A DNA stretch of 64,000 nucleotides from PVC group bacterium (GTDB lineage Bacteria; Auribacterota; Erginobacteria; Erginobacterales; Erginobacteraceae): the NCBI GenBank assembly GCA_040773245.1, contig JAXGWO010000003.1:6629-70628 (forward strand). Direction: 5' to 3'. Both the position numbers and the translations under genes were made by a program. Under the pieces are notes generated by a model. The model saw only the letters and a list, made by a program, of their open reading frames with translations, was not told the DNA's origin and did no database searches. Positions 1-42,024 of the stretch are shown here, piece after piece. Every line of letters starts with the position of its first letter. Within the stretch, counting starts at the first letter, position 1.

Positions 1-5
1 TGTAG

Positions 6-3000
6 ATGACCGAAGCTGCAAATGGGATTCCGCTGCCTCCATCGGACATTCGCAAACTGCGAGAGTGCCAACGACTGGCACTGCAGAAGATCGCATCTTG
101 GCATGGACCGAAGGCGCACGAGACCTTTCTTGCTTGTATGCCGACGGGGACCGGTAAAACGGGCGTCATTGCCCTTAGCGGGTTGTATTTCGCCAAGAAG
201 GATGTGCTGATTGTCACGCCTTGGGACAACCTTCGAACCCAGATGGTAGATGCTCTCGAAGCAAAATTCTGGGAGAACTCAGGAATCACCAAGCCCGAAG
301 GATTCCGAGCAAAGGCCTTCTCCGGCAAAGACCTCGCTGACGAGTTCAAGAAGATAAAACCAGACACGCCGCGAACGTTCTGGGTTACGACGTTCCAAGG
401 CCTCTGGACGACCAGCAAAAGCAAGGAAACCTTCTCTGAACTGCGATCACGTCTCGACCTGGTCGTAATCGATGAAGGACACTACGAACCCGCTATGTGG
501 TGGGGGCACGCCGCCAAAGAGCTCAAGACTCCTACAATCCTGTTTACCGCGACGCCCTACCGCAATGATCTGAAGTACTTCCGCATTCGGGAAAAGGATG
601 TGTCGCACTATAAATACAAGGATGCCGTAACTGAAGATGTCATTCGGCGCGTTGCGCCGACGCCACTCGGAGAAGCTGGAGGGTCCACTGAAGAAATTGC
701 GGCTGCCATCGCCGAGAAATGGAGTAGCGCCAAGAAGCGCACCTTGGCGAACCCGCATCCCAAGATGATTGTTTGCTGCCGCAATTTCCAAGCGGTAAAG
801 GCGTACACCCTCCAACTGGCGAAGCTTGACCTTCCGGTTATCGGCATTCACATCCGCGCGACTAAGAAGCATCTGTCGGCCAAGCAGCTGAAGCTCTTCA
901 GAAGCAAAGTACCGAAAGACCCTTCGGATGAGTCAGCAGAGATATGGGTTCACGAGAAGATGCTCACCGAGGGACTCGACCATCCGCCCTTCTGTTCGCT
1001 CGCAATCACCTACAATATGAGAAATGACCGCAAGTTGATTCAGCAAATCGGCAGGGTTGTGCGGCGAGCTAATGATGATCGGCATAACAACGCCGTTGTT
1101 TACTCGGTTGGCGACGCCTGCGTCGATGCCAGTTGGGAATCGTTTCAGGATTTCGAGGATGACTTTCGTGTGGTCACCACCGAGTACTACAGAGACTTCA
1201 TTGACAACCACCTGAGCAATCAACCTGCGGTGGAGTACTTCGGCAAGCGATTCAGGCGACAACTTGTACCCAAAGAGCTTTCCGCAGAGGTGGCGGGGCG
1301 CGAACTGCTTTCTCTTCCGAGCGTCATAGCGCGTCGCATTGGTGACAACTTTGATATCGACAAGTTCGTCTACGACGTAACCGATAATATCCAACTGCAA
1401 GAGGATTTCGTTGCTCTCGGCCCGATCAGGGACTCGCCGGTGTTATCGCCAGAGGACACTGCGCCCGTGAAGGGAGCGGTGTGGTTATATTGTAGGTTTT
1501 CCAACTCGCGTGCGTTACTTGCGCATTCTGCTTATGAGGTGAAGCTCTCGGCTCTTTGTGTTGTCCTGATCAATCCCTTTCTGTTTGTTTCCGATACGGA
1601 TGCGTTTGTGCCCGCGGAATCTCTTGAGAAACACACCTTCCCATTGCGTCTATCTGACCTGCGCCGAGCGTTCGCAAGTGGGTACCTGCCCACGCAAGTG
1701 CAACTGAAGAACTCCCTACCACACCAAAGCGTGGTACGTGGGACGACACGGTCAGGCAAGAACCTTGCGGAGGTACCCAACTCGCTCACCGAATCAAAGT
1801 ACATCTGTAGTTCGATTCGCGGGAGAAACCCGACCGAAGGGCGTAGGTATGTAGGCTTCACTACTGGACGTCTAAGCGATGATCGAAATGGTATGCGGCG
1901 CTACGAAATGTGCTTCACTGACTTAATCAGGTGGTGTGAAGAGGTTGCTAGGGTGCTGCGGACCTCTGCTGCCACTCACACCTTCTTCCTGCGATTCGCA
2001 CGCCTTGTAGACCCACCTGCGGCGATTGAGCCACACTATGGTTTCTTGGACTTCTGGTCTGGTGCCTTCACGCTCGTGGATCAGGACGGCAACACCAGGG
2101 AACCGATGGATGCCGTGTTTCAGTTTATTCCTGAGGATGCCGATGGAGACGATAAGACGACCAAGGCTTACAGGTTCCACATCCGCGGTGAACTCGACGG
2201 CAAGGAGGAAACAGCGGAGTTGAGAACCTTCTGGCGGGATGGACGATTTCACTTCAAAGCGGTCGAAACCAACGGCCTGGTCATCCGAGAGGCCATAACA
2301 AGCTCTAGCGGTGAGCAAGAATCTACCAGGGACGTTGAGATTGCCTCCTTCTGCAGCCGGAAGCAAGGCGACCTGTTCATTTCACTTGCCTCAAGTAACG
2401 TGATCTTCAATAGCGGAAGCTTCTTCGAGGTCGATCCTACGAGCAATTATTCAGACCTTGGCGGCATGTTCATCGGTTGCGATGAACTCAATCGGGAAGG
2501 ACTTTCCGAGAAGAACCCCAAAGGCAAGAAAAGGATGAAGAGCTGGTGCAAGCAGTCAATCTTCGGAATTGCCAGTTCAGACTCCTTTTTAGCCCGAGAG
2601 TTCGGTGGCAAGCCGGATCTGATTGTGTGTGACGACGGCTCCGACGAGATTGCCGACTTCGTCCTCGTCCAGTTCGATCCACCGAAGTTCGTGCTCGTCC
2701 ACTGCAAGTCTAAACCGCGTAAGGACGACGACAAGGAGCTGCGCGCTGTCTGCGAGCTCCAAGAGGTGGTGTCACAGGCATCAAAGAACCTGGTGTATAT
2801 GTCTGGGCGAAGTCAGATTCCGCCCCACATTGACGAGTGGACGAAGACCAAGAACGTGTACGGTTTCCAGGTGCCGCGGCTACTGCGCAAGGTTGGCACG
2901 AAGCTCTCGGGAACAGCTCTCTGGAATCATATCAGCGACAATGTCCTGCTCAGCAGAAACACAGAGAAGGAAGTGTGGATCATAGTCGGGGGCGCACTCA

Positions 3001-3149
3001 CAAAGTCATGGATCGACCGCGAACTTGCGAAGTGCAAACGAGCGCAGTCGAACCTGGCGTGTCTGTTTCATATGGTTGACGGCCTGAGCGCCTCTTGTAC
3101 GGAAGCCAACGCCAGGCTTAAGGTATTCTGCAACTCCGGAGATAGCTGA
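6..3149 (+). CDS. SF2 (ResIII/DEAD-like) helicase fused to a C-terminal Mrr-like PD-(D/E)xK-type nuclease-like domain; 1047 aa
   Basis: Complete SF2 motif set in the N-terminal ~360 aa: motif I MPTGTGKTG (nt ~139-165), Ia IVTPWDNL, II VVIDEGHY (DExH, nt ~463-486), III TATPYRN, VI QQIGRVVRR. C-terminal region has CDDGSDEIADFVLV ... VLVHCKSK (nt ~2614-2715), resembling the Mrr_cat DGxxD ... QCK core. Lower GC than downstream host genes. Stop overlaps next start (TGATG). Confidence 0.6.
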   Translation: MTEAANGIPLPPSDIRKLRECQRLALQKIASWHGPKAHETFLACMPTGTGKTGVIALSGLYFAKKDVLIVTPWDNLRTQMVDALEAKFWENSGITKPEGFRAKAFSGKDLADEFKKIKPDTPRTFWVTTFQGLWTTSKSKETFSELRSRLDLVVIDEGHYEPAMWWGHAAKELKTPTILFTATPYRNDLKYFRIREKDVSHYKYKDAVTEDVIRRVAPTPLGEAGGSTEEIAAAIAEKWSSAKKRTLANPHPKMIVCCRNFQAVKAYTLQLAKLDLPVIGIHIRATKKHLSAKQLKLFRSKVPKDPSDESAEIWVHEKMLTEGLDHPPFCSLAITYNMRNDRKLIQQIGRVVRRANDDRHNNAVVYSVGDACVDASWESFQDFEDDFRVVTTEYYRDFIDNHLSNQPAVEYFGKRFRRQLVPKELSAEVAGRELLSLPSVIARRIGDNFDIDKFVYDVTDNIQLQEDFVALGPIRDSPVLSPEDTAPVKGAVWLYCRFSNSRALLAHSAYEVKLSALCVVLINPFLFVSDTDAFVPAESLEKHTFPLRLSDLRRAFASGYLPTQVQLKNSLPHQSVVRGTTRSGKNLAEVPNSLTESKYICSSIRGRNPTEGRRYVGFTTGRLSDDRNGMRRYEMCFTDLIRWCEEVARVLRTSAATHTFFLRFARLVDPPAAIEPHYGFLDFWSGAFTLVDQDGNTREPMDAVFQFIPEDADGDDKTTKAYRFHIRGELDGKEETAELRTFWRDGRFHFKAVETNGLVIREAITSSSGEQESTRDVEIASFCSRKQGDLFISLASSNVIFNSGSFFEVDPTSNYSDLGGMFIGCDELNREGLSEKNPKGKKRMKSWCKQSIFGIASSDSFLAREFGGKPDLIVCDDGSDEIADFVLVQFDPPKFVLVHCKSKPRKDDDKELRAVCELQEVVSQASKNLVYMSGRSQIPPHIDEWTKTKNVYGFQVPRLLRKVGTKLSGTALWNHISDNVLLSRNTEKEVWIIVGGALTKSWIDRELAKCKRAQSNLACLFHMVDGLSASCTEANARLKVFCNSGDS

Positions 3150-4282
3150 TGGCTCGATCGAGCAAACTAAGGGTGATGATCTCGAGCAGATGTAATGACG
3201 TGTTTCCTCACGGCAGCGGCTCAGGAAGGACACTCTCGGATATCCGCCGTGATCTGAAGAAAGACATCGAAGCCGAGAAGGTACTTGGTAAGAAGACCTT
3301 TGATGTGTGGATCAATGAGGAGTCTCCGCCAAAGGGTGGCACCTGGGATAGCTGGGACACGTGCATTAAGGCTGCAAAAGATTGCGACATACTCCTGGTT
3401 CTGACGAATGGCAATGCTGGATGGGCTGGCGCGGCAGGAGATATCGGAATATGCCACGCGGAATTGTCGACAGGGCTTTCGTCCGCTCCTGGGAAGGTGT
3501 GGCTGATTTCTTTGGGGGACATCCCGTGTCCAGCCACTGCGGAAGGGAATCGCAACAAACGATTCCAAAATTTCGTGAACACCCAGAGCCTCTTCCGTGG
3601 AGGAGTCGTCAAGACAGAGGCTGACCTCAAGAATCGTGTAAAGGAGGCCCTGCAAAATGCTGTCGTTGACCTCGTGCAGAAGGGCGTTGCCGAGGCGAGC
3701 CGCGGGAAGTTCCACAGCGGCGCAGCGCTCGACTGGGATCGCCTAGATTTCGAAAATCGGCGGAGCAAGATGAAGTCGATAGTCCGCGATACCCTTCAGG
3801 GGCGATTAGGCACTAAGTCAGATGGGGATCATGAGGTTGTGAGTATTGGAGGAAAGGAAATCCTGCTTGTTTCCGATGCTATCCCTGCCGCCATGTCGAT
3901 ATCGGCAGCGCGGGAAAAGGTTGGACAGCCATTTCTTCATGACCACCTGTTAGTCGCTTCACTCAAGGGGGCTCGCGGAGGACCTGTTCACATCATTGCC
4001 TGTCACAAGGGCGTGACTGAGGCGCAAGCGCTTCGAATGCTTGGCTTCCCAGATGCAACCGTTGTGAACACGCCATTTGGAATCTATCTTGCGGACGGCA
4101 TACAGCGCATCCAGCTTGTGTTGATCTCCGGGTGCAGAGATGAGTCGACCACACGACATGGCATCCAAAGGTTCTTCGATTGGCTCCAGCAGACAGGCGA
4201 GGATAGACTGCTTGCACAAAGAGCTGTGTCACGAGCGAAGATTGTGGCCGTCATCTCAAAGGAGTTAGCGGTCGCCAAATGA
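3149..4282 (+). CDS. Hypothetical protein with DUF4062-like N-terminal domain (VMISSRCNDVF ... DIRRDLKKDIE); 377 aa
   Basis: ATG overlaps upstream stop by 1 nt (translational coupling). N-terminal pattern hISSxxxD ... DLKxxxE recalls the DUF4062 domain found at N-termini of many defence-island proteins. Remainder has no motif I can name. Confidence 0.45.
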   Translation: MARSSKLRVMISSRCNDVFPHGSGSGRTLSDIRRDLKKDIEAEKVLGKKTFDVWINEESPPKGGTWDSWDTCIKAAKDCDILLVLTNGNAGWAGAAGDIGICHAELSTGLSSAPGKVWLISLGDIPCPATAEGNRNKRFQNFVNTQSLFRGGVVKTEADLKNRVKEALQNAVVDLVQKGVAEASRGKFHSGAALDWDRLDFENRRSKMKSIVRDTLQGRLGTKSDGDHEVVSIGGKEILLVSDAIPAAMSISAAREKVGQPFLHDHLLVASLKGARGGPVHIIACHKGVTEAQALRMLGFPDATVVNTPFGIYLADGIQRIQLVLISGCRDESTTRHGIQRFFDWLQQTGEDRLLAQRAVSRAKIVAVISKELAVAK

Positions 4283-4291
4283 GGGCGGCGT

Positions 4292-4513
4292 ATGAAACAC
4301 CTCACTCAAACAGACCACGTATGGTCGCAGTTGGGTGACAATGCACTACTAAAGAATGCTTGGCCCCGGCTTTTTGTCGAAGAAATGGAATATGCAGGAG
4401 CAATTGCGCGAACAACAGCATACAGCGGACGGCGCTTCGCGCCGCCGCTGATGCTGAGCGTTCGGCAAAAAGAAATAGGAATCACCTATCGCAAATCGTC
4501 AATAGGAGATTAG
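4292..4513 (+). CDS. Small hypothetical ORF (73 aa) in the 232-nt gap between the DUF4062-like and HerA-like genes
   Basis: ORF exactly fills the intergenic gap and has a weak GAGGG upstream. No recognisable motif. May simply be a spacer or internal promoter region. Confidence 0.15.
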
Positions 4514-4514
4514 G

Positions 4515-6656
4515 ATGACTGACATCGTATCGAATCTGGCCGGAAGGTTAAGCGAACCGGAGTTGAGCGAGCCCCTGCAAGCGGCCAGCCGGGCGCTGAC
4601 AGCCCTAGTTGAGGACACCGCCTACGTCGGCGAAGTCTACTCGCTCGGATACGACGAAGCCCTTGTCCAGATACACGACTTCCACCGCCAACGGGTCGGC
4701 GGCATTCCTGCGCTCTCCTTCTTGATCGCTACCCGTGTCGGCACTGGCGCCTTGGCAGACGTGCGACAGGAGGACGCCTCCATCGTGCTCCTACGTGTTC
4801 TTGATAAAGCCGACCTACCCAATGCGGACGAAGCCCTGCGCGTCCGAGTCGAAACGGCACAGCGGGTAAGCGGTGAAGTAACTCGGCACTGGGACGACCG
4901 GACCGTTATGGACCCGACGACGCACAATCTGCTCAGCTACGCTGGCGTCCGATGCCGAGTGCTGGGAACCTATTATATGGTCAACGCCGGCTCCGACAAC
5001 GCCCCCGTGTTCCGCCTCTTCTTCGGCTCGGACCTCAGTAACTACTACCCCAACCGTGGCCTGAAGGTCTTCAAGCCGCGCGGCAGCGTGCTGGAGGACA
5101 TCGTCAACTTCCGTGACCCCCGGCTGCCTGTTGCCGCACACGACGGCGATGTCTCCATCGGACAGGTTCGCTACGCTTCGAGCCACCGGCCCTTCCAAGG
5201 CATCGACGGTGTGCCAGTGCAGATCACGCCGACGGACCTTCTCGGCCAGAAGACCGCACTCTTCGGGATGACACGTACCGGCAAGTCGAACACTACGAAG
5301 ATCATTCTCAAGTCCATCTTCGCCCTCAGGTGGGGCCACAACCCGATTCGTATCGGCCAGATCGTCTTCGACCCGAACGGCGAGTATGCAAACGAGAACG
5401 AGCAGGACTCCGGAGGCAAAGGACTCAACGCCGAAGCAATTAAGAACGTCTGGAAGTGCGGCCCGGCCGCTCAGCACCAGCGATTGCAGGCGGATGTCAT
5501 TACCTACGGCATCATGGCACACCCAAACGATCCCCACCGGAGGCTGATGCTGCTGAACTTCTACCTCGACGCCAATCTCCAGATCGGCAAGGAGATCATC
5601 AACGATGCGCTGTCGGACCAGACCTCCACCTACCTAAGCAACTTCCGGAACGTCACGTTTGACCCGCCCGACGCGAATGATCGTTCGGCCGTGACCAGAT
5701 ACAACCGTCGCGTTCTCGCCTACCGAGCGTTGCTATTCAAAGCCGGGCTGCAAGTGCCAAGCAGCCTGAGGCCAAACACCCGCAACCTGTTCAATGCGAA
5801 TCTGTTGGCGACCCTGCATACGGACGCACAGAATGGTACTGGCAAGTCGCCCGCCGACTACGGCGTCTGCGCAACCATTCTCGCCAAGCAAACGCCGACG
5901 TGGGCTGAGCTTGCCCAAGCGTTTGAGATACTCCGCGACTACATCGCCGATAGTGGCTCCGGCTGGGGTGCGTTCAACGCGGCTTACGTTCAGACAAGCA
6001 GTTCTGGCTCATGGGCAGACGACGACCTCAAGAAGATTCTGGAGATGTTCGCCTATCCCAACGGCTCCCGCCTGATCGGGCGAGTGAAGGAGCAGCACAC
6101 ACCGGACACAAGCTCCGACTATGCCGCTGACATCTACGAACACCTCAAGCAAGGCCGGCTGGTAATTGTCGATCAGTCGAGCGGCAATCCCGAAATCAAC
6201 AAGGCGGCGGCGGATCGGGTGATGCGGCTAATCTTCGAAGGGCATCAGCAGCAGTTCCGCACGGCACAGACACCGCCCGAGGTGCTGGTGTATGTCGAGG
6301 AGGCCCACAATATCCTACCGTCCTCGCGGGAGCTTGACTTCCAGGACATCTGGGTCCGCTCCGCGAAGGAAGGGGCGAAGTATCACATCGGCTTAGTCTA
6401 CGCGACGCAGGAGGTGAGTTCGATCCAGCAGAACATCCTGCGAAACACGGTCAACTGGTTCATCGGCCATCTAAATAACACCGACGAGACACGCGAAATC
6501 CGCAAGTTCTACGACTTCGCCGACTTCGAGGGTAGCATTCTCCGTGCCCAGGACAAGGGCTTCGTCCGTGTGAAGACACTATCAAACCCGTATGTCATCC
6601 CGGTGCAGGTGGACCGCTTCCTTATCGAAGACACCTCGAACCCTCAGGGGGCGTGA
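4515..6656 (+). CDS. HerA/FtsK-like (DUF87-type) P-loop ATPase; 713 aa
   Basis: Strong SD (AGGAG, 9 nt upstream of ATG). Walker [15 protein letters not shown] (nt ~5261-5300). Walker B with HerA-typical hhhhDEAH-like [14 protein letters not shown]-terminal region consistent with a HAS-barrel-like segment. Size typical of HerA-family ATPases. Confidence 0.55.
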
Positions 6657-6657
6657 C

Positions 6658-8022
6658 GTGCCATACGACGGTGAATACGCGACATACCGCCCTCTGCATC
6701 GGATCTCCGAGTGCCAAAGGGTGACGAGCCTTCTTGCCCGATCCAAGCTCTTGGAGGTAGCACGGGCCACCTACGCCCCGAAGCCCGTCGAAGCTCCTCC
6801 GCAGGCGCCAGCCTTGCCGCGGTTCATACTCGCGATAGACGGCAGCTACGCTGAAGTGGACGTGAAGAACGGCTATCCGGGCGCCAAGGTCGGCTACTGC
6901 ACTGCGGCGAGTGTGCTCCTTGACCTACACCTCATCGGCGAACTGGATGAAGAGCGTCCGGTTGATCCCGTCGAGTTCCGCAAGACAGAGCAAGCCGCAA
7001 GCGTCGACGCCGCGCTGCCGGGCAGCAACGTGGTCACGCGAAGGCAGAACTCCGCGCGGGCGTCGTTCCGCGAGGAACTCTACGACCTCTTCACCGACAT
7101 CGTCGTTGACGAAGACGACCGTATGAACTTGCTCTCGACCTACGAAGCACTGCTGGTGCTGAAACCGACGGCCAATCCTCAGAGTTGCCCATACAAGGAG
7201 TCGCACGGTTGCACGGCGGCATTCGCGGTTGGCTCCGGTTGCACGATGTGTCCGACCTGCGGTCGTCCCGTATACTCCACCGACGCCCTTCGCATCCATG
7301 AGCGGTTCAGGGACATCGGAACAAACGGCGAGGCGTTCGGCCTGGTAATGCAGGTTATGGAACGGCTGCTCGCAATCCATTTCCTCCGATGCTTTGAGCG
7401 CCGCAATCTGCTGCAACGTCTCCCGTCGCTCGCATTCTTCATCGACGGTCCATTGGCGGCGTTCGGCCCGCCGGCTTGGCTGAGCGCCGCTATCAGCCGG
7501 GAACTCAAACGACTCAATCAGAAGGTGCAGGCCGCAACCGGCCAGGACCTCTTGATCTTAGGCATCGAAAAGACCGGGGTTTTCGTGCAGCACTTCGAAG
7601 AAATCGACCAAACGGAAACGCCGGGACAGCAGCTTTTCTCCGCGCGGCAATACATACTCCTGACGGACGGCTATATCAAGGATCGTATCCTGCACTCCGA
7701 CAGCCACAAGCGGTACGGGGAAGATACCTATTTCGGCCGAAAGTTCTTCTACAAGGCGCAGAGTGGGGCTCGGATCGTCGCCAGCATTCCGTTTCTATCC
7801 GATGCTCAAGACACCATAGCCAATGACGACATCTCTCTCTATCCACAGTTCGCTGCCGTCTGCACGCTCCTGGATCGCGTGGTGTCGTCACGTTACGCGA
7901 ACTCGGTGTCGCCGTTGATTGCGGCCAATGCCCAGGCCGCTATCCCGCTGCAACTCGGATCGAAGGTGTTGACGCAACTGGCGAGGGCGCTTCTAGGAAC
8001 TGCTGAGAATGGCAGGAAATAG
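6658..8022 (+). CDS. NurA-like nuclease-domain protein with inserted Cys4 zinc ribbon; ~455 aa from GTG 6658 (ORF track alternative start ATG 6592 would overlap upstream gene by 65 nt)
   Basis: GTG at 6658 lies 1 nt after the HerA-like stop. N-terminal RFILAIDGSYAEVD (nt ~6824-6860) matches NurA motif I (catalytic Asp in IDGS). A second FFIDGP occurs later. CPYKESHGC ... CTMCPTCG cluster at nt ~7190-7265. Gene order ATPase then nuclease mirrors HerA-NurA operons. Confidence 0.4.
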   Translation: MPYDGEYATYRPLHRISECQRVTSLLARSKLLEVARATYAPKPVEAPPQAPALPRFILAIDGSYAEVDVKNGYPGAKVGYCTAASVLLDLHLIGELDEERPVDPVEFRKTEQAASVDAALPGSNVVTRRQNSARASFREELYDLFTDIVVDEDDRMNLLSTYEALLVLKPTANPQSCPYKESHGCTAAFAVGSGCTMCPTCGRPVYSTDALRIHERFRDIGTNGEAFGLVMQVMERLLAIHFLRCFERRNLLQRLPSLAFFIDGPLAAFGPPAWLSAAISRELKRLNQKVQAATGQDLLILGIEKTGVFVQHFEEIDQTETPGQQLFSARQYILLTDGYIKDRILHSDSHKRYGEDTYFGRKFFYKAQSGARIVASIPFLSDAQDTIANDDISLYPQFAAVCTLLDRVVSSRYANSVSPLIAANAQAAIPLQLGSKVLTQLARALLGTAENGRK

Positions 8023-9121
8023 CAAAACCTTCGGCACCGCGGCGAAGAGGTGGGAGGGAATCGGCCCATACTACGCCATGTTCCCGATTCGATTTGCCGA
8101 CGCGGTTATCAAAGAGCATACGGCAGCGGGTGACACAGTGCTTGACCCGTTCGCCGGCCGCGGGACCGCGATCTTCAGCGCATCGGCACTGGGGAGGCGC
8201 GGGTTCGGCGTTGAGATAAGTCCTGTCGGATGGGTCTACGCGAAGGCCAAGCTGGGCCCCGCGCCTCCGGAGCAAGTCGAGCAACGGCTACAGGAGATTG
8301 CTAATGCGGGCAGAGTCTATGCCGAGCAAGCCCGGTCTCTGCCGGAGTTCTTCAAGAAGTGCTTCTCTCCGTCTGTTCGGCGCTTCCTGCTCGCCGCGCG
8401 AGATGGACTCGACTGGCGTAGATGCACTTGCGACAGGACACTTATGGCGATCCTACTCGTCTACCTGCACGGGAAGGAAGGCCAGGCACTATCGAACCAG
8501 ATGAGGCAAACAAAGGCTATGTCACCGCAGTACGCCATCCAATGGTGGATTGAACACGGATCGAATCCGCCTGACTTAGATGCGGTGGAGTTTCTGCAGC
8601 AGCGAATCCGCTGGCGATACGCGAAGGGCGTGATTGAGGCGGATGACAGCCGGATTTTCCTGGGCAACAGCATCACCGTCCTTCCGCAATTGGCGAAGCG
8701 AATGCGCGAAGAGAAAGCCCCAAAAGCGAAGCTCTTGCTCACATCACCGCCGTACTTTGGCGTTACGAATTACCATTACGACCAGTGGCTTAGGCTCTGG
8801 TTGCTAGGATTTGAGACCGACGCCTACGTGGCCCGAGGGCCATACCAAGGCCGGTTCACCCATCCTGTCCGCTATCGAAGCTTGCTCAATAAGGTCTTCT
8901 GCCGCGCGGCGAAACTGATCGCGGACAACGCAGTGGTCTACGTCCGCACTAGCAAGGACCCGTTTACCAAGAAGGCGACGCTTGATACCATGCTCAAAGC
9001 CTTCCCGAAGAAGCGGCTGATCGAGCGATGCCAGCCATTCCGAAAACCGACGCAGACATTCCTTTTCGGCGACAACACGCCGAAGGCTGGCGAGGTAGAC
9101 TTAATCTTGTTGCCATCATGA
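8009..9121 (+). CDS. DNA methyltransferase, N6-adenine/N4-cytosine family (N6_N4_Mtase-like); 370 aa
   Basis: AdoMet motif I VLDPFAGRGTAIFSA (nt ~8140-8180) and catalytic motif IV LLTSPPYFGV (nt ~8744-8770; SPPY typical of N4C/N6A MTases). Order I ... IV with ~200 aa between. Start overlaps the NurA-like gene end by 14 nt. Confidence 0.75.
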   Translation: MAGNSKTFGTAAKRWEGIGPYYAMFPIRFADAVIKEHTAAGDTVLDPFAGRGTAIFSASALGRRGFGVEISPVGWVYAKAKLGPAPPEQVEQRLQEIANAGRVYAEQARSLPEFFKKCFSPSVRRFLLAARDGLDWRRCTCDRTLMAILLVYLHGKEGQALSNQMRQTKAMSPQYAIQWWIEHGSNPPDLDAVEFLQQRIRWRYAKGVIEADDSRIFLGNSITVLPQLAKRMREEKAPKAKLLLTSPPYFGVTNYHYDQWLRLWLLGFETDAYVARGPYQGRFTHPVRYRSLLNKVFCRAAKLIADNAVVYVRTSKDPFTKKATLDTMLKAFPKKRLIERCQPFRKPTQTFLFGDNTPKAGEVDLILLPS

Positions 9122-9221
9122 GAAACGAAACACAGTATGGGTTCCTAATGGAAGCAGCGCAATAGCCGATTGTGGCGGGCGATCCACTTTGCGGTCAGCC
9201 TCTGAAACGGGCTAGGAGGAA

Positions 9222-10151
9222 ATGACTATGCCGAACTTGGAAATCGCGGCTAGAAATTTCATAGGAACCTACACCTCACTAAACGGCACCACTATTCAGC
9301 CTATCAGTCGATTCGCCCTTCTCCGGTCCATGATCACTGTCGGGTATAAGTGCGAGGCCGACGCGATCGGGTATGGCTGGCGGAGTATCGGTTGGCATCT
9401 TTCGACCTGCTTTCTCACCATCGCTACGACCGTATCGCGGAACGGCAACTTGGTCGTATCTAAGCTTTTCCACTCCCTGGATTCATCCGAAAAGAATATG
9501 GTCAGCTACCGCTTGGGGATGGGTCTAACCAAGTACACTGCGGAAGTCAAACTCAACGTCCCGTGGCTCGTACACCTGGACAAGATATTCAATGCTGGTG
9601 GACTAACCTTGCAGGACGGGACTCTCGAACGTGGAGACCTTGCTGGGCAAGACGGCGCTGGGGTATGGCATGTGGTAGAGGCAAAGGGCAGATCCAATCC
9701 GCCATCCGGCAAGCTCCTCACCAAAGCCAAGAATCAGGTCTCGCGCGTTACCTCCATTAATGGACAGCCCCCGGCCACCAAGTCGGCGTCTATCATCCAT
9801 TTGTACAGAGACCCCATCAGAGCCGAATTGGTTGACCCACAGAAGCCGGAGAAGAAGCCACTCAAGATCCAGATATCGCTCGGTAAGTATTTCCCAACAT
9901 ACTATGCCATTCTCCTTCAACTCCTCGATCTCTCCGAAATACAGTCTCACGTGGTTGGCGATGTACCCTTTAGCCTGACTCCCTTTGATTTTGGTGGCAA
10001 TGTGATCGGAATCGGCCTTGCTGACGCTGTTCGGAGGAATCCCACGGAAGCCCAGAGATTAACAAAGGAAATTCTGGCGATGGACCTGCGGCAGCGGGAG
10101 AATCCAAAGAAAAGCATTGGCCTTGATGGGGTGATTGTGGCGCAAATGTGA
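9222..10151 (+). CDS. Hypothetical protein, possible PD-(D/E)xK restriction-endonuclease-like partner of the methyltransferase (start more likely ATG 9228, which has AGGAGG 8 nt upstream)
   Basis: Segment RGDLAGQDGAGVWHVVEAKGRS (nt ~9640-9700) fits a D-x(n)-ExK core. Sits immediately downstream of a DNA MTase. No other recognisable motif, so the functional call is weak. Confidence 0.3.
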   Translation: MTMPNLEIAARNFIGTYTSLNGTTIQPISRFALLRSMITVGYKCEADAIGYGWRSIGWHLSTCFLTIATTVSRNGNLVVSKLFHSLDSSEKNMVSYRLGMGLTKYTAEVKLNVPWLVHLDKIFNAGGLTLQDGTLERGDLAGQDGAGVWHVVEAKGRSNPPSGKLLTKAKNQVSRVTSINGQPPATKSASIIHLYRDPIRAELVDPQKPEKKPLKIQISLGKYFPTYYAILLQLLDLSEIQSHVVGDVPFSLTPFDFGGNVIGIGLADAVRRNPTEAQRLTKEILAMDLRQRENPKKSIGLDGVIVAQM

Positions 10152-10992
10152 CGGCAGCCCCAACAAGAGCATCCAGCCCTACAAACGGGCCGCGCGGATG
10201 CGGCTCTTTTTAAGGCTGAAGCTCGCCGTTGATCTGAATAATAAGATGCGGCACCAAAAGAATATCATTGCCTTTAATGGCAAAGCACGCGGTCCGTCCG
10301 AAGAGAAGGCGCGAGTGGCGTTTATCAATAAAGCCTCGGGGTTATTATTCATCGCAGCAAAGGAGGCCGCAAAACGTGCACTAAGAGCATCAGGCACACT
10401 CGGGGAGCAAAATGAGGCAATGACCGCTGTGGTTCTGTGCGGAGTAGTCGCAGAGGCCAGCATCAATGAAATCAGCGCGTGGTATGAATCTCATCATCTT
10501 CATCCCCAGTTCAGCGTTTCGCATAATCTTCCATATGGCTTTGACCGCTTGGAACTCCGTGTCAAGTGGTCATTGTTCCCGATGATTGTCAGGCAACGTA
10601 GTTTCAACACTGGTGCCGAACTATGGCAGAGCTTCAATGCTCTAGTTGAACTCCGCAACTTCATTGTTCACCTTCGAGATCGCCCCCTATCAAAGTCAGT
10701 CAATGGATTACTAAGATCAAAAAAACTGATAGAGGAGCACCATAGTTTTCTTGGCTTTCCGGTTGCACAGTGGGCCTGCGAAACCGTTGCTTCAATGTTC
10801 GAAGAGCTTACCAAGTTGGTGGCACCACCTCAGGAATGGATACCAATCGTCTGGCATTGGACCCCAACTCATTCGTTCCCTTATGGCTTGTCGACACCAG
10901 GTGATTCGTTTGTTGAAACAGAAAGCAAGAAGCTACCAACAAGACGATCTAGGGGAAGGATCACTCGCAGTGGGTTCGCCACCCGTGAATGA
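10135..10992 (+). CDS. Hypothetical protein (285 aa; true start uncertain, internal ATGs at ~10197 and ~10246)
   Basis: Last ORF of the low-GC plus-strand array. Codon usage like the island genes. No motif recognised. Confidence 0.3.
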   Translation: MWRKCDGSPNKSIQPYKRAARMRLFLRLKLAVDLNNKMRHQKNIIAFNGKARGPSEEKARVAFINKASGLLFIAAKEAAKRALRASGTLGEQNEAMTAVVLCGVVAEASINEISAWYESHHLHPQFSVSHNLPYGFDRLELRVKWSLFPMIVRQRSFNTGAELWQSFNALVELRNFIVHLRDRPLSKSVNGLLRSKKLIEEHHSFLGFPVAQWACETVASMFEELTKLVAPPQEWIPIVWHWTPTHSFPYGLSTPGDSFVETESKKLPTRRSRGRITRSGFATRE

Positions 10993-11146
10993 TAGCGTTG
11001 GCCAACCAGAACAGGAGGCAAACTATAGGAAAAGCAAATGACAAGAAGGTTGTTCGCAATGCACTATACATCCTTAGAACGAACAGTTATTGGCCGAGGC
11101 AGAAAACATAAATCGAAAACTGGGGGCGAAGACGTTACTGAATCGC

Positions 11147-12553
11147 TTACCACCAGCCCGGATAGGGAGGGACAAGGAAGAGGCGGAGGTGGAGGTCGCG
11201 GACTACTCTCAGGAGGAACTTGATAGCCCGCCAGTTTAGGGCCTTGAGGTTTCGGCGGAGGAAATAGAGGATGGTTGCGGGGTCGCGCTGGATTATCCGC
11301 ACTATCTTTTTGGAGGCGGCGGTTAGGTCGGAGTAGAAACTGGTCCAGGGGAGCTTGATCCAGGGCCAGGGGCCCTGCAGGTTCCAGTCGCCCTGCAGGG
11401 TTCCGTTCTTTTTGGCCTCCTCGTAGACCTCGGTTCCGGGGAGGGGATAGAGGACGGGGACGAAGCCTACTATCGGTTTGGCCTGGCGGAGGAAGGCGAT
11501 GGTTTCTTCGACGGTCTCGGGGGTCTCGCCCGGGAAGCCGACCATTATCTCGCCGTAGCAGCCAATTCCGGCTTCCTTGGTCAACCGCGCGGCTTCCAGG
11601 TTTTGAGCCACCGTGGTCCCCTTCCCCATCGCCTCCAGCACCCGGTCCGACCCGGACTCGAAGCCATAGACGATCTGCTCCACCCCTGCCCTCTTCAATT
11701 TCTCCAGCAGTTCCCGATCGACGGCGTCAACCCGGGAGCGGATCTTAAGCCGAAAATGGTATCCGCCACGGACCAGTCCATCGGCGATCTCCAGGCAGCG
11801 GGAACGGGCGGCGGTGAAGGCGTCGTCCTGGATGTGGACCGACCTCACCCCGCGACGCCGCAGTTCCTCGAACTCCACCATCAGGTTCTCGACGGACCGG
11901 ACGCGGCACTTCTTCTCCACCTGGAAACAGAATCGGCAGTTATAAGGACAGCCCCGGGAGCTGATCATCATATCCAGTTTTCCCCGGGCGGCCAGGTTCC
12001 AGTACAGGCCAGCTTGGTAGTAGCGGTCGAGGTAGCTTCGGTCGAGCGGGGGCAGGAGGTCGAGGTCCTCGATCCGGTCGGGGGGGTTGGAGGCGATCCC
12101 GCCTTCCGTCCGGTGAACCAGGCCGGGGACTTCCCGGGCGGGGATCTTTCCTTCCAGCATCTTGACCAGGGCGGGGAAGGAGCGGTCGGCCTCCCCCCGG
12201 ATGGCGTAGTCGAGCTGGGTAATCTTCTCCAGGGTCCACTCCGGCCGGGCGGTGGGGTGGGGACCGCCGACGACCATCGCCGCGTCGGGGAGGTAGGTCT
12301 TCATCCGCCGGGTGATCCGGTCGAAGGGGATCAGGTAGGGGGTGTAGCAGGTCAGTCCGACCAAGTCCGGGCGGTAGTCCCGGATCTCGGCGAAGAAGGG
12401 GTCCATCCGGCGGAACTCGCCGGAGTAGTCGAAGATCCTCGCCTCCTCCCCCGTTTCCCCGAGCTGGGTGGCCAGCCGGCAGAGGTGGAGGGGGGGGTAG
12501 TAGCCGGTGGACCTACCCTGGAAGGCGTCGTAAGCAACAAGGGCGATCTTCAT
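11147..12553 (-). CDS. B12-binding domain radical SAM protein; 468 aa
   Basis: N-terminal cobalamin-binding-like region (MKIALVAYDAF ... DLVGLTCYTP). Radical SAM CxxxCxxC: SSRGCPYNCRFCF. High-GC host-type codon usage begins here. Confidence 0.8.
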   Translation of the reverse strand: MKIALVAYDAFQGRSTGYYPPLHLCRLATQLGETGEEARIFDYSGEFRRMDPFFAEIRDYRPDLVGLTCYTPYLIPFDRITRRMKTYLPDAAMVVGGPHPTARPEWTLEKITQLDYAIRGEADRSFPALVKMLEGKIPAREVPGLVHRTEGGIASNPPDRIEDLDLLPPLDRSYLDRYYQAGLYWNLAARGKLDMMISSRGCPYNCRFCFQVEKKCRVRSVENLMVEFEELRRRGVRSVHIQDDAFTAARSRCLEIADGLVRGGYHFRLKIRSRVDAVDRELLEKLKRAGVEQIVYGFESGSDRVLEAMGKGTTVAQNLEAARLTKEAGIGCYGEIMVGFPGETPETVEETIAFLRQAKPIVGFVPVLYPLPGTEVYEEAKKNGTLQGDWNLQGPWPWIKLPWTSFYSDLTAASKKIVRIIQRDPATILYFLRRNLKALNWRAIKFLLRVVRDLHLRLFLVPPYPGWW

Positions 12554-27113: not shown

Positions 27114-28010
27114 TCAGGCCCGGGGATGGGTCTGATCGTAGACCTTCTTCAGCCGCTCCTTGGAGACGTGGGTGTAGATCTGGGTGGTGCTGAGCGATTC
27201 GTGGCCGAGCAGTTCCTGGACGGCGCGGAGGTCGGCGCCGGCGTTGAGGAGATGGGTGGCGAAGGAGTGCCGCAGCGCGTGGGGGGTGATCTTCTTCCCG
27301 ATCGCCGCCTGCTTGATGTACTTATCCAGGAGTTTGCGGACCGAAGCGGCGCCGAGGCGCCGGCCCGAGCGGTTGACGAAGAACGGGTCGCCGGAACCGC
27401 CCTCCGGGAAGGCCTTCAGGTAATCCCGCAGCGCCCGGACCGCCCAGGAACCCAGGGGGCAGAGACGCTCTTTCTTCCCCTTCTCCCGGACCCGGACCAG
27501 GTCGCCGATCAGGTCGACGTCTCCCCGGTTCATCGCCACCAGCGCCCCGACCCGGATCCCGGTGGAGTAGAGAGTCTCGAGGATGGCCCGGTCCCGCAGC
27601 CCGAGCAGGGTCGAGGAGGAGGGGGCGGCCAGGAGGGACTCGACCTCCTCCCGGGTCAGGAAAGACGGCAGCCGCTTCTCCACCCGGGGGAGCCAGACCT
27701 GGCGGGCCGGGTTGTCGTCGAGCAGGCCTTCCCGCCGCAGGAACCGGAAGAAGGAACGGAGCGCCGAGATCTTCCGGGAGAGCGAGCGCTTGCCCACCCC
27801 CCGCTCCTGGAGCGCGGCCATATAACCCCGGATGACCAGCCGGTCGATCCCCTTCAGCCGGGCCGGCGACCCGCTGGCGGGGTCGCGGAGAAAACCGAGA
27901 AACTGGACCAGGTCCGACCGGTAGTTGCGCAGGGTGTGGGGCGAGGCGTTCCGCTCCAGGCGGAGGTAGCGGATATAGGCGTCGATGTACTGTTCGAATT
28001 TCTCGACCAC
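27114..28010 (-). CDS. Tyrosine site-specific recombinase, XerC/XerD type; 298 aa
   Basis: Catalytic R ... HxLRH ... Y motifs ([28 protein letters not shown]). N-terminal SAM-like core-binding domain. Typical Xer length. Confidence 0.85.
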
Positions 28011-41950: not shown

Positions 41951-42024
41951 GGCGGAGTAGCTCAGCTGGTTAGAGCAGCGGAATCATAATCCGCGTGTCG
42001 GGGGTTCGAGTCCCTCCTCCGCTA
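41951..42024 (+). tRNA. tRNA with anticodon CAT (elongator tRNA-Met or tRNA-Ile2/lysidine type); 74 nt, CCA not encoded
   Basis: Cloverleaf read by eye. Acceptor GGCGGAG/CTCCGCT (one G-U). D-arm GCTC-AGCTGGTTA-GAGC. Anticodon stem GCGGA/TCCGC with loop ATCATAA. Variable loop GTGTC. T-arm GGGGG-TTCGAGT-CCCTC. Discriminator A. Anticodon stem lacks the three G:C pairs of an initiator tRNA. Confidence 0.85.

Follow-up and report, generated by a model that had tools for sequence, protein, structure and literature searches.

The first 11 kb of the window analyzed here, a 64,000-nucleotide (64-kb) stretch of contig JAXGWO010000003.1 from a bacterium of the PVC group, contain a cassette of three genes (positions 4491–9137, + strand) that encode a HerA-type ring ATPase, a NurA-type nuclease, and a DNA methyltransferase (MTase). 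Our comparative analysis suggests that this triad is probably a self-contained, mobile cassette akin to a restriction–modification (R-M) system, and a methylation-based relative of Tdp, a phosphorothioate (PT) system whose ATPase and nuclease are TdpA and TdpB. The eight open reading frames (ORFs) in the first 11 kb are referred to below as g1 to g8. Those of the triad are g4 (4515–6656; HerA of the TdpA-like clade, 713 aa), g5 (6658–8022; TdpB-like NurA-type nuclease of RNase H fold, 454 aa, GTG start), and g6 (8009–9121; MTase, 370 aa), all on the + strand. An earlier note on this DNA had instead treated the whole of positions 6–10151 as one multi-gene defence system; of that flagged region, only the triad is found again elsewhere as a set.

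The limits of the unit emerge from a comparison of 80 HerA-anchored loci, each with 10-kb flanks and drawn from genomes of different species. One of them duplicates another (L005; L numbers denote comparison loci), and the remaining 79 were searched by tblastn with all eight window proteins. HerA, NurA, and MTase were found together, in the same order and on the same strand, in every locus not cut by a contig end, apart from two decayed copies (L017 and L065) and one locus with a 4-kb insertion (L070). None of g1, g2, g3, g7, or g8 was detected by tblastn within 10 kb of HerA in any of the loci (0/79), and when the flanking ORFs were clustered across the same set no cluster was common to more than four loci. 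At the DNA level, blastn against triads of other phyla, which are 75–84% identical, places the start of homology at 4491–4515 and its end at 9100–9137, so that the edges fall 0–24 nt upstream of the HerA start codon and 0–16 nt past the methylase stop. The constant triad, the absence of the other genes, and the sharp DNA edges therefore define a three-gene cassette of approximately 4491–9137 and not an eight-gene array. Conservation of the gene set across genomes, which the earlier note had named as a check on its model, thus holds for the triad and fails for the full array.

The features that had suggested a single system are nevertheless real. All ORFs of the array lie on the + strand in DNA of lower G+C (0.49–0.59 over positions 1–11000), and the same arrangement recurs in several metagenome assemblies from the same population. 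The junctions are as tight as had been described: g1 and g2 meet in TGATG with one base in common at 3149, the HerA TGA stop ends at 6656 and the NurA GTG begins at 6658 with 1 nt between them, and the NurA and MTase genes overlap by 14 nt (8009–8022). The GTG at 6658 is the true NurA start, since the N terminus MPYxGE[YF]A, which is kept in all homologs, begins there, and separate gene predictions for this sequence likewise yield the 454-aa product. The dense packing is thus genuine, but the unit that it was taken to signify is smaller. Along with their absence from the other triad loci, g1 and g2 are each found apart from the triad and, for the most part, from one another, an attC-like site lies between g2 and HerA, and the modules differ in G+C; that all of 6–10151 forms one multi-gene system is therefore very improbable. 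The lesson for scans of this kind is that genes of a defence island need not belong to one system because they are densely packed and overlap stop to start.

The assignment of g4 to the HerA-type P-loop ATPases, proposed in the earlier note, was confirmed by a Pfam DUF87/HerA match above the cut-off (7.7e-11). Across 73 loci its Walker A motif (GMTRTGKS, residues 251–258) and Walker B region (EEAHN, 594–599) show more than 95% conservation. PADLOC HerA models match the C-terminal ATPase core of g4, down to 3e-22, and the best PDB match is TdpA (8wet), with E-values of 2.4e-18 by sequence and 3.2e-18 by profile in an alignment that spans both the Walker A and the Walker B regions; 8wfd and 8y1k are also TdpA matches. 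Structures of SIR2-HerA, DUF4297-HerA, and archaeal HerA match g4 at 1e-7 or worse, and the lead of TdpA over the other HerA matches in the PDB amounts to 11 orders of magnitude in E-value. NCBIfam HerA models also align with the C-terminal ATPase core of g4, but the model HerA_antiphage scores 37.8 bits against a cut-off of 800. Between the Walker motifs the protein carries an insert of ~240 aa (residues 301–540, window positions 5415–6134) that is conserved within the family; for neither this insert nor the HerA N terminus did Pfam return anything at E ≤ 10.

A Pfam NurA match above the cut-off (6e-10) likewise bears out the reading of g5 as a NurA-type protein, and the proposed pairing of HerA with a NurA nuclease agrees with the adjacency of the two genes and their joint presence in the triad loci. 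Conserved acidic and histidine residues (D61, E111, D209, E235, H241, D263, E304, H312, and D317) are retained at more than 95% in 67–73 loci. The Cys4 ribbon that had been noted in this protein is not a feature of the whole family: the Cys cluster is confined to one clade, and only C198 is family-wide. An AlphaFold2 model of the nuclease (pLDDT 75, pTM 0.78) has as its top Foldseek match chain G of the TdpAB–DNA complex (8wfd_G; E 5e-6, TM 0.42/0.51), followed by the NurA proteins of Sulfolobus, Deinococcus, Thermococcus, and Pyrococcus. No PADLOC 2.0 model matches the protein, and PHROGs likewise returned nothing; homologs bear the NCBI name “DNA double-strand break repair nuclease NurA.”

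The third gene encodes a DNA methyltransferase with an SPPY motif, as the earlier note had recognized, with a Pfam N6_N4_Mtase match above the cut-off (3.4e-11). Motif I (DPFAGRGT) lies at residues 46–53 and motif IV (TSPPY) at 245–249, ~190 residues later, with conservation above 95% for each across 67 loci. The PADLOC model MTase_II matches g6 over residues 21–303 (1.3e-17), and its PDB matches are modification methylases, N4-cytosine MTases, and CcrM. An SPPY motif favors N4-cytosine as the target. Between motifs I and IV (MTase residues 81–240), SNQMR..K and WW motifs are also conserved. As all catalytic motifs of HerA, NurA, and the MTase are conserved, the three enzymes appear to be active and under selection.

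Whether the triad corresponds to a named system has a mixed answer. The claim that it matches none holds for the annotation tools, in that neither PADLOC nor NCBIfam matched it to a system: PADLOC sees only a generic HerA and MTase_II in the triad, and all NCBIfam scores are far below their cut-offs. In addition, full-text searches of a literature library returned no description of a HerA–NurA–methylase defence system. The claim does not hold for the components, because HerA and NurA are nearest to TdpA and TdpB, and the same three domain families are found together in the integrative and conjugative element (ICE) ICEth1 of Thermus. In the PT literature, Tdp appears as a third PT system, from extremophiles, is listed among the PT-based R-M defences, and has one gene, tdpC, that makes the modification. 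Like Tdp, the triad is a three-gene cluster with a HerA-type, presumably hexameric ATPase, a nuclease of predicted NurA fold, and a single modification gene. It differs in that a base methyltransferase of the N6_N4 family takes the place of TdpC as the third gene product; HerA is ~130 aa longer than TdpA, owing to the 240-aa insert; NurA is ~100 aa longer than TdpB and shows no sequence-level match to it; and the carriers are mesophilic members of more than 20 phyla, whereas Tdp comes from thermophiles. No PT enzyme was found within the cassette. Since the third gene encodes a methyltransferase (DPFxGRG, TSPPY) and no PT enzyme is present, the triad is not a member of Tdp.

The second precedent is the tdtA operon of ICEth1 in Thermus thermophilus HB27, which comprises Tth111II, the NurA-like TTC1878, TdtA (TTC1879), and the PF01555 methylase TTC1880, and in which knock-outs of nurA and tdtA lose the ability to donate chromosomal DNA in “transjugation” (PMC5365140). 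The likeness, which is one of domain description, is that three domain families lie adjacent on a mobile element. This operon supplies the case for reading the triad as machinery with which a mobile element exports or processes DNA: the domain set is the same, loss of the nuclease or ATPase gene abolishes donation, and the triad is clearly mobile, being carried by an integron, plasmids, and a prophage. Yet the order is NurA–HerA–MTase in ICEth1 and HerA–NurA–MTase here, the ICEth1 operon begins with a Type IIG restriction enzyme, and the element around it has an integrase and att repeats, whereas conjugation, relaxase, integrase, and Type IIG genes are not conserved beside the triad in the 79 loci. 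Moreover, the nearest solved relatives, TdpA and TdpB, belong to a defence system. An export function thus appears unlikely. The principle is known from Tdp and the gene association from ICEth1.

Two further groups of HerA systems are more distant. SIR2-HerA and DUF4297-HerA (the “Her” system of Gao) resemble the triad in coupling a HerA hexamer to an effector partner in phage defence, but here the effector is NurA, a methylase is present, and their structures match g4 far worse than TdpA does. The HerA–NurA pairs of archaea and Deinococcus share both folds with the cassette and likely a 6:2 translocase–nuclease assembly that degrades dsDNA; for the pair of Thermococcus kodakarensis, degradation of both dsDNA strands has been demonstrated, and a role in defence was suggested in the same study. 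This kinship, together with the Pfam NurA and HerA matches, the NCBI names, and the similarity of fold to archaeal and Deinococcus NurA, could indicate a housekeeping pair for double-strand break repair or end resection. The comparative data argue against that reading as they do against the single large system. The triad is patchily distributed, in ~0.15% of species genomes; it has no conserved locus or synteny in the 79 loci and no linkage to mre11 or rad50; its methylase is obligatory; and near-identical copies occur across phyla and are carried horizontally by an integron, plasmids, and a prophage. A repair pair is accordingly a highly unlikely explanation.

The distribution of the triad is that of a mobile cassette that has spread between phyla. 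A pattern scan of 185,579 species genomes detected at least 285 relatives in more than 20 phyla and in one archaeon, and the 80 loci include Chloroflexota, Planctomycetota, Verrucomicrobiota, Acidobacteriota, Actinomycetota, Cyanobacteriota, Bacteroidota, Myxococcota, Gemmatimonadota, Nitrospirota, Spirochaetota, and several candidate phyla. Protein identity across phyla (Chloroflexota, Planctomycetota, Desulfobacterota, and Fermentibacteria) reaches 84–92%, and among 1.84 billion representatives the NurA-like protein forms a family of its own, of modest size, with 175 clusters at E ≤ 1e-30. A scan of viral contigs found a close HerA on a single contig only; the close clade is therefore not typically phage-borne. 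More distant triads, at 28–36% identity, reside on a haloarchaeal plasmid, where the gene order is the same, on a Deferribacter megaplasmid, and in a temperate Vibrio phage. On the Deferribacter plasmid pDF308 (L092, 4791–11264) the methylase comes first and HerA is split by an IS200/IS605 tnpA–tnpB insertion. In Vibrio phage 10N.286.54.E5_PE002 (L175, 1–6053) triad-like genes occupy an accessory slot between the integrase and excisionase genes: HerA, annotated there as two ORFs, is accompanied by a NurA-like gene and by a Type II methylase gene in convergent orientation.

These vehicles, together with the tight cassette edges and the constant coinheritance of the three genes, are also what would be expected of a mainly selfish addiction module, in which, as with some R-M systems, methylation is diluted after loss of the cassette, HerA–NurA then attacks the chromosome and kills the cell, the plasmid, integron, or cassette is stabilized in this way, and phage defence is a side effect. 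The decayed or insertion sequence-disrupted copies (L017, L065, and L092) fit this idea as well. However, the neighbors of the triad are often defence genes and not plasmid-maintenance genes: its heterogeneous flanks include SLFN-type helicases, PIN_8 proteins, GajB-like UvrD helicases, Type I S subunits, SngC, AbiTii, and PDC-S41. Sequence cannot separate addiction from defence, and the two are not mutually exclusive, but as the principal role we give addiction little weight.

The clearest vehicle is an integron. In L024, a gammaproteobacterial metagenome-assembled genome, the triad occupies the second cassette position of an integron, with a divergent integron integrase upstream (IntI, 961–1935, – strand; TIGR02249 471.8 bits, cut-off 265). 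It is flanked by attC-like sites at 3041–3115 and 7797–7856, the first 69 nt from the HerA gene and the second 73 nt from that of the methylase. The window has an imperfect palindrome of the same kind at 4407–4466, 49 nt upstream of the HerA ATG, with R''=CGCGAAC, R'=GTTCGGC, and two unpaired bases on one arm; its DNA fold has an energy of –29.4 kcal/mol, with z-scores of –5.9 and –6.2 for the two strands. Over its central 52 nt, this hairpin has 94% identity with the attC-like site at the 3′ end of the triad cassette in L024. In the window the hairpin stands upstream of HerA, and its near-identical copy in L024 stands on the opposite (3′) side of the triad. There is no second attC-like site in positions 1–12000, the other gene junctions included, and the hairpin has no Rfam match. 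We rejected the idea of the entire island as an array of integron cassettes, given that the other junctions have no attC-like hairpin and no IntI was found within the 64-kb window, which begins just before g1. As a three-gene, defence-type integron cassette of 4.6 kb the triad of L024 is unusual: a probable multi-gene defence system that travels as one.

These comparisons suggest how the cassette would work. The methylase would mark host DNA, while a HerA hexamer and a NurA dimer would assemble into a translocating ring that bears a nuclease gate. This complex would thread onto unmodified incoming dsDNA, move along it by means of ATP, and degrade both strands; by analogy with Tdp, methylated self DNA would block loading, translocation, or cutting. 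Co-expression of the three proteins would be maintained by the close translational coupling of their genes, and the earlier suggestion that a cotranscribed methylase restrains HerA–NurA is plausible. The helicase–nuclease and its partner of the DUF4062 family are, like g7 and g8 downstream, separate neighbors and not subunits. More tentatively, and as a possibility that we hold somewhat short of probable, the triad could be a distinct and widespread anti-phage system spread in the manner of integron cassettes, a translocase–exonuclease gated by base methylation in which one mark is read directly by the HerA ring or by the NurA gate.

Complex formation, a defence role, and self-protection by methylation are inferred for the cassette. 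For Tdp, which serves as the analogy, An et al. (2025, Nat Chem Biol) reportedly found that a TdpA hexamer and a TdpB dimer degrade PT-free DNA and that the PT sulfur on self DNA inhibits them. Several observations weigh against an R-M-like function and are set out here together. Searches of the PDB with NurA by sequence and profile gave no match, TdpB included, and the link from NurA to TdpB comes from the Foldseek match at TM 0.42–0.51. The MTase is evenly conserved along its length in 67 species, with no hypervariable target-recognition region; most R-M methylases, by contrast, have a variable one. This evenness suggests a methylase family with one common target rather than diversified specificities, and with an invariant recognition region all carriers may have one mark in common. 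The neighbors of the triad also include ordinary metabolic genes, and the list of neighbors is one of raw occurrence. On the Nostoc plasmid pANSO36C (L091, 5695–10503) a helix-turn-helix regulator, HerA, and NurA are followed by AbiTii, with no methylase. Finally, the ICEth1 operon, the sole experimentally studied one with the same three domain families, is tied to DNA donation and not to defence.

Two features of the region upstream of HerA recur in small numbers of triad loci. In all four actinobacterial loci a PIN_8-domain protein of 390–440 aa is encoded 29–182 nt upstream of HerA (L032, 1043–2275; L047, 2612–3787; L059, 8506–9819; L060, 8647–9972), and it may be a lineage-specific fourth gene of the actinobacterial loci. 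In two others, from Terriglobia and Terrimicrobiaceae, the remnant of a DndC-like PP-loop gene (FSGGKDST), truncated, runs precisely up to the first base of HerA (L016, 186–761; L019, 9738–10004), where the cassette may have landed in or beside dndC. A link of the triad to Dnd was rejected, the DndC-like fragments being present in these two loci only and truncated in both.

In the window the region immediately upstream of HerA is occupied by g3 (4292–4513, + strand), a 73-aa ORF that has no family match in Pfam (even at E ≤ 10), PADLOC, NCBIfam, or PHROGs, and no homologs in the triad, g1, or g2 loci beyond the hairpin match. Because the attC-like hairpin lies inside g3 and homologs are lacking, g3 is probably not a gene. 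Its candidacy as a controller protein of the triad was likewise rejected, as it has no homolog 5′ of HerA elsewhere and overlaps the hairpin.

The first gene of the array, g1 (6–3149, + strand), encodes a protein of 1047 aa that combines a superfamily 2 (SF2) helicase with a restriction-endonuclease-fold domain and forms a module of its own. The helicase that the earlier note had seen is confirmed by Pfam ResIII/DEAD matches above the cut-off at residues 17–186. The C-terminal domain, which had been called Mrr-like, is a PD-(D/E)xK fold only in the generic sense: Mrr is not among its top matches, Mrr_cat (PF04471) is not found at E ≤ 0.01 in the whole protein or at E ≤ 10 in residues 801–1047, and Pfam at E ≤ 10 returns nothing for the middle and C-terminal parts. 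The conserved residues of this domain (D877, E881, D884, H899-x-K901, Q924, and K927) include a D-x14-HxK rather than an ExK motif. PADLOC matches residues 508–1043 to PDC-S71, a candidate single-gene system, at 1.3e-23 (profile positions 78–588 of 589), but this profile covers only the C-terminal half, and g1 has the SF2 helicase as an additional N-terminal part. Its architecture is comparable to those of Hna, Type ISP enzymes, and the Hachiman nuclease HamA, and the PADLOC models for Hna and Hachiman did not match it. Full-length homologs with 30–52% identity stand alone, and the surroundings in which they occur are unrelated to one another and often mobile. A 74% identical relative in L090 is the sole case in which a g2 homolog follows the g1 homolog stop to start.

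The neighboring gene g2 (3149–4282, + strand; 377 aa) is translationally coupled to g1 in the window and encodes a divergent DUF4062-family protein. Its proposed membership in this family is borderline, in that g2 itself scores 17.7 bits on PF13271 against a cut-off of 24.7 and a 64% identical homolog in L096 passes with 28.3 bits; g2 resembles a bona fide DUF4062 protein only weakly (E 0.002), and PHROGs returned nothing for it. Homologs with 40–66% identity were found in 80 metagenomic loci (L095–L174), all of which lack g1. In 13–14 of these 80 the homolog lies 3 nt after hsdM and 6–9 nt before hsdS in a Type I R-M operon (e.g., L096, 2293–9873), and others adjoin GmrSD, SIR2-pYEATS, or subtilase genes. 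Because its homologs sit in Type I R-M operons, g2 looks like a separate accessory gene that attaches to ATP-dependent restriction enzymes, and it may act as a restriction-linked accessory or a back-up effector.

Downstream of the triad lies g7 (9222–10151, + strand), a gene of 309 aa with no assigned function. Its earlier description as a possible ExK nuclease found no backing, as the protein has no match in Pfam (even at E ≤ 10), PADLOC, NCBIfam, PHROGs, or the PDB, and a metagenome scan returned no relatives. Full-length relatives with 28% identity are present on 110 Agrobacterium and Rhizobium plasmids (e.g., L176, 2420–3999), where they stand directly 3′ of a gene for a RES-family NAD+ phosphorylase (RES toxin). 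A terminator-like hairpin (10187–10206) follows g7. The next ORF, g8 (10198–10992, + strand; 264 aa), is an orphan with an Rx4H motif (RNFIVH) and the lowest G+C (0.489); nothing was found for it in Pfam at E ≤ 10 or in PHROGs, and its sole match, to PADLOC RTasHEPN, is below threshold (E 0.0086). Judged by these comparisons, g7 and g8 are separate neighbors and not members of the triad.

Taken as a whole, positions 1–11000 have the character of horizontally acquired, conflict-type DNA, as the earlier note had proposed. The remainder of the window has a G+C of 0.651, compared with 0.593 for the triad, and a radical-SAM gene on the opposite strand, at 11147, marks the right end of the island. 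We therefore consider it likely that this segment is a mosaic of independent modules resembling a defence island, with the triad cassette, working in the R-M-like manner described above, as its core. At the left edge, all four independent Logan assemblies that contain g1 (L001–L004), the only assemblies with exactly these proteins, share their first base, 83 nt 5′ of the g1 ATG, which suggests a repeat or a population-variable junction. Two other features of the window do not lie beside the island: a gene for a tyrosine recombinase, probably of the Xer type and 33% identical to the L024 IntI (27165–27785, – strand), and the sole tRNA gene, for tRNA-Met (41951–42024, + strand).

If the cassette does restrict unmethylated DNA, the principle embodied in Tdp would reach beyond a rare sulfur modification of thermophiles, and ordinary base methylation would serve as the guard mark in bacteria of soil, water, and gut from more than 20 phyla. 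The triad would then be a compact, self-contained defence system of 4.6 kb that the tools tested here miss. Furthermore, it would offer a tractable case in which to learn how modified bases are sensed by a ring translocase as it encounters them.

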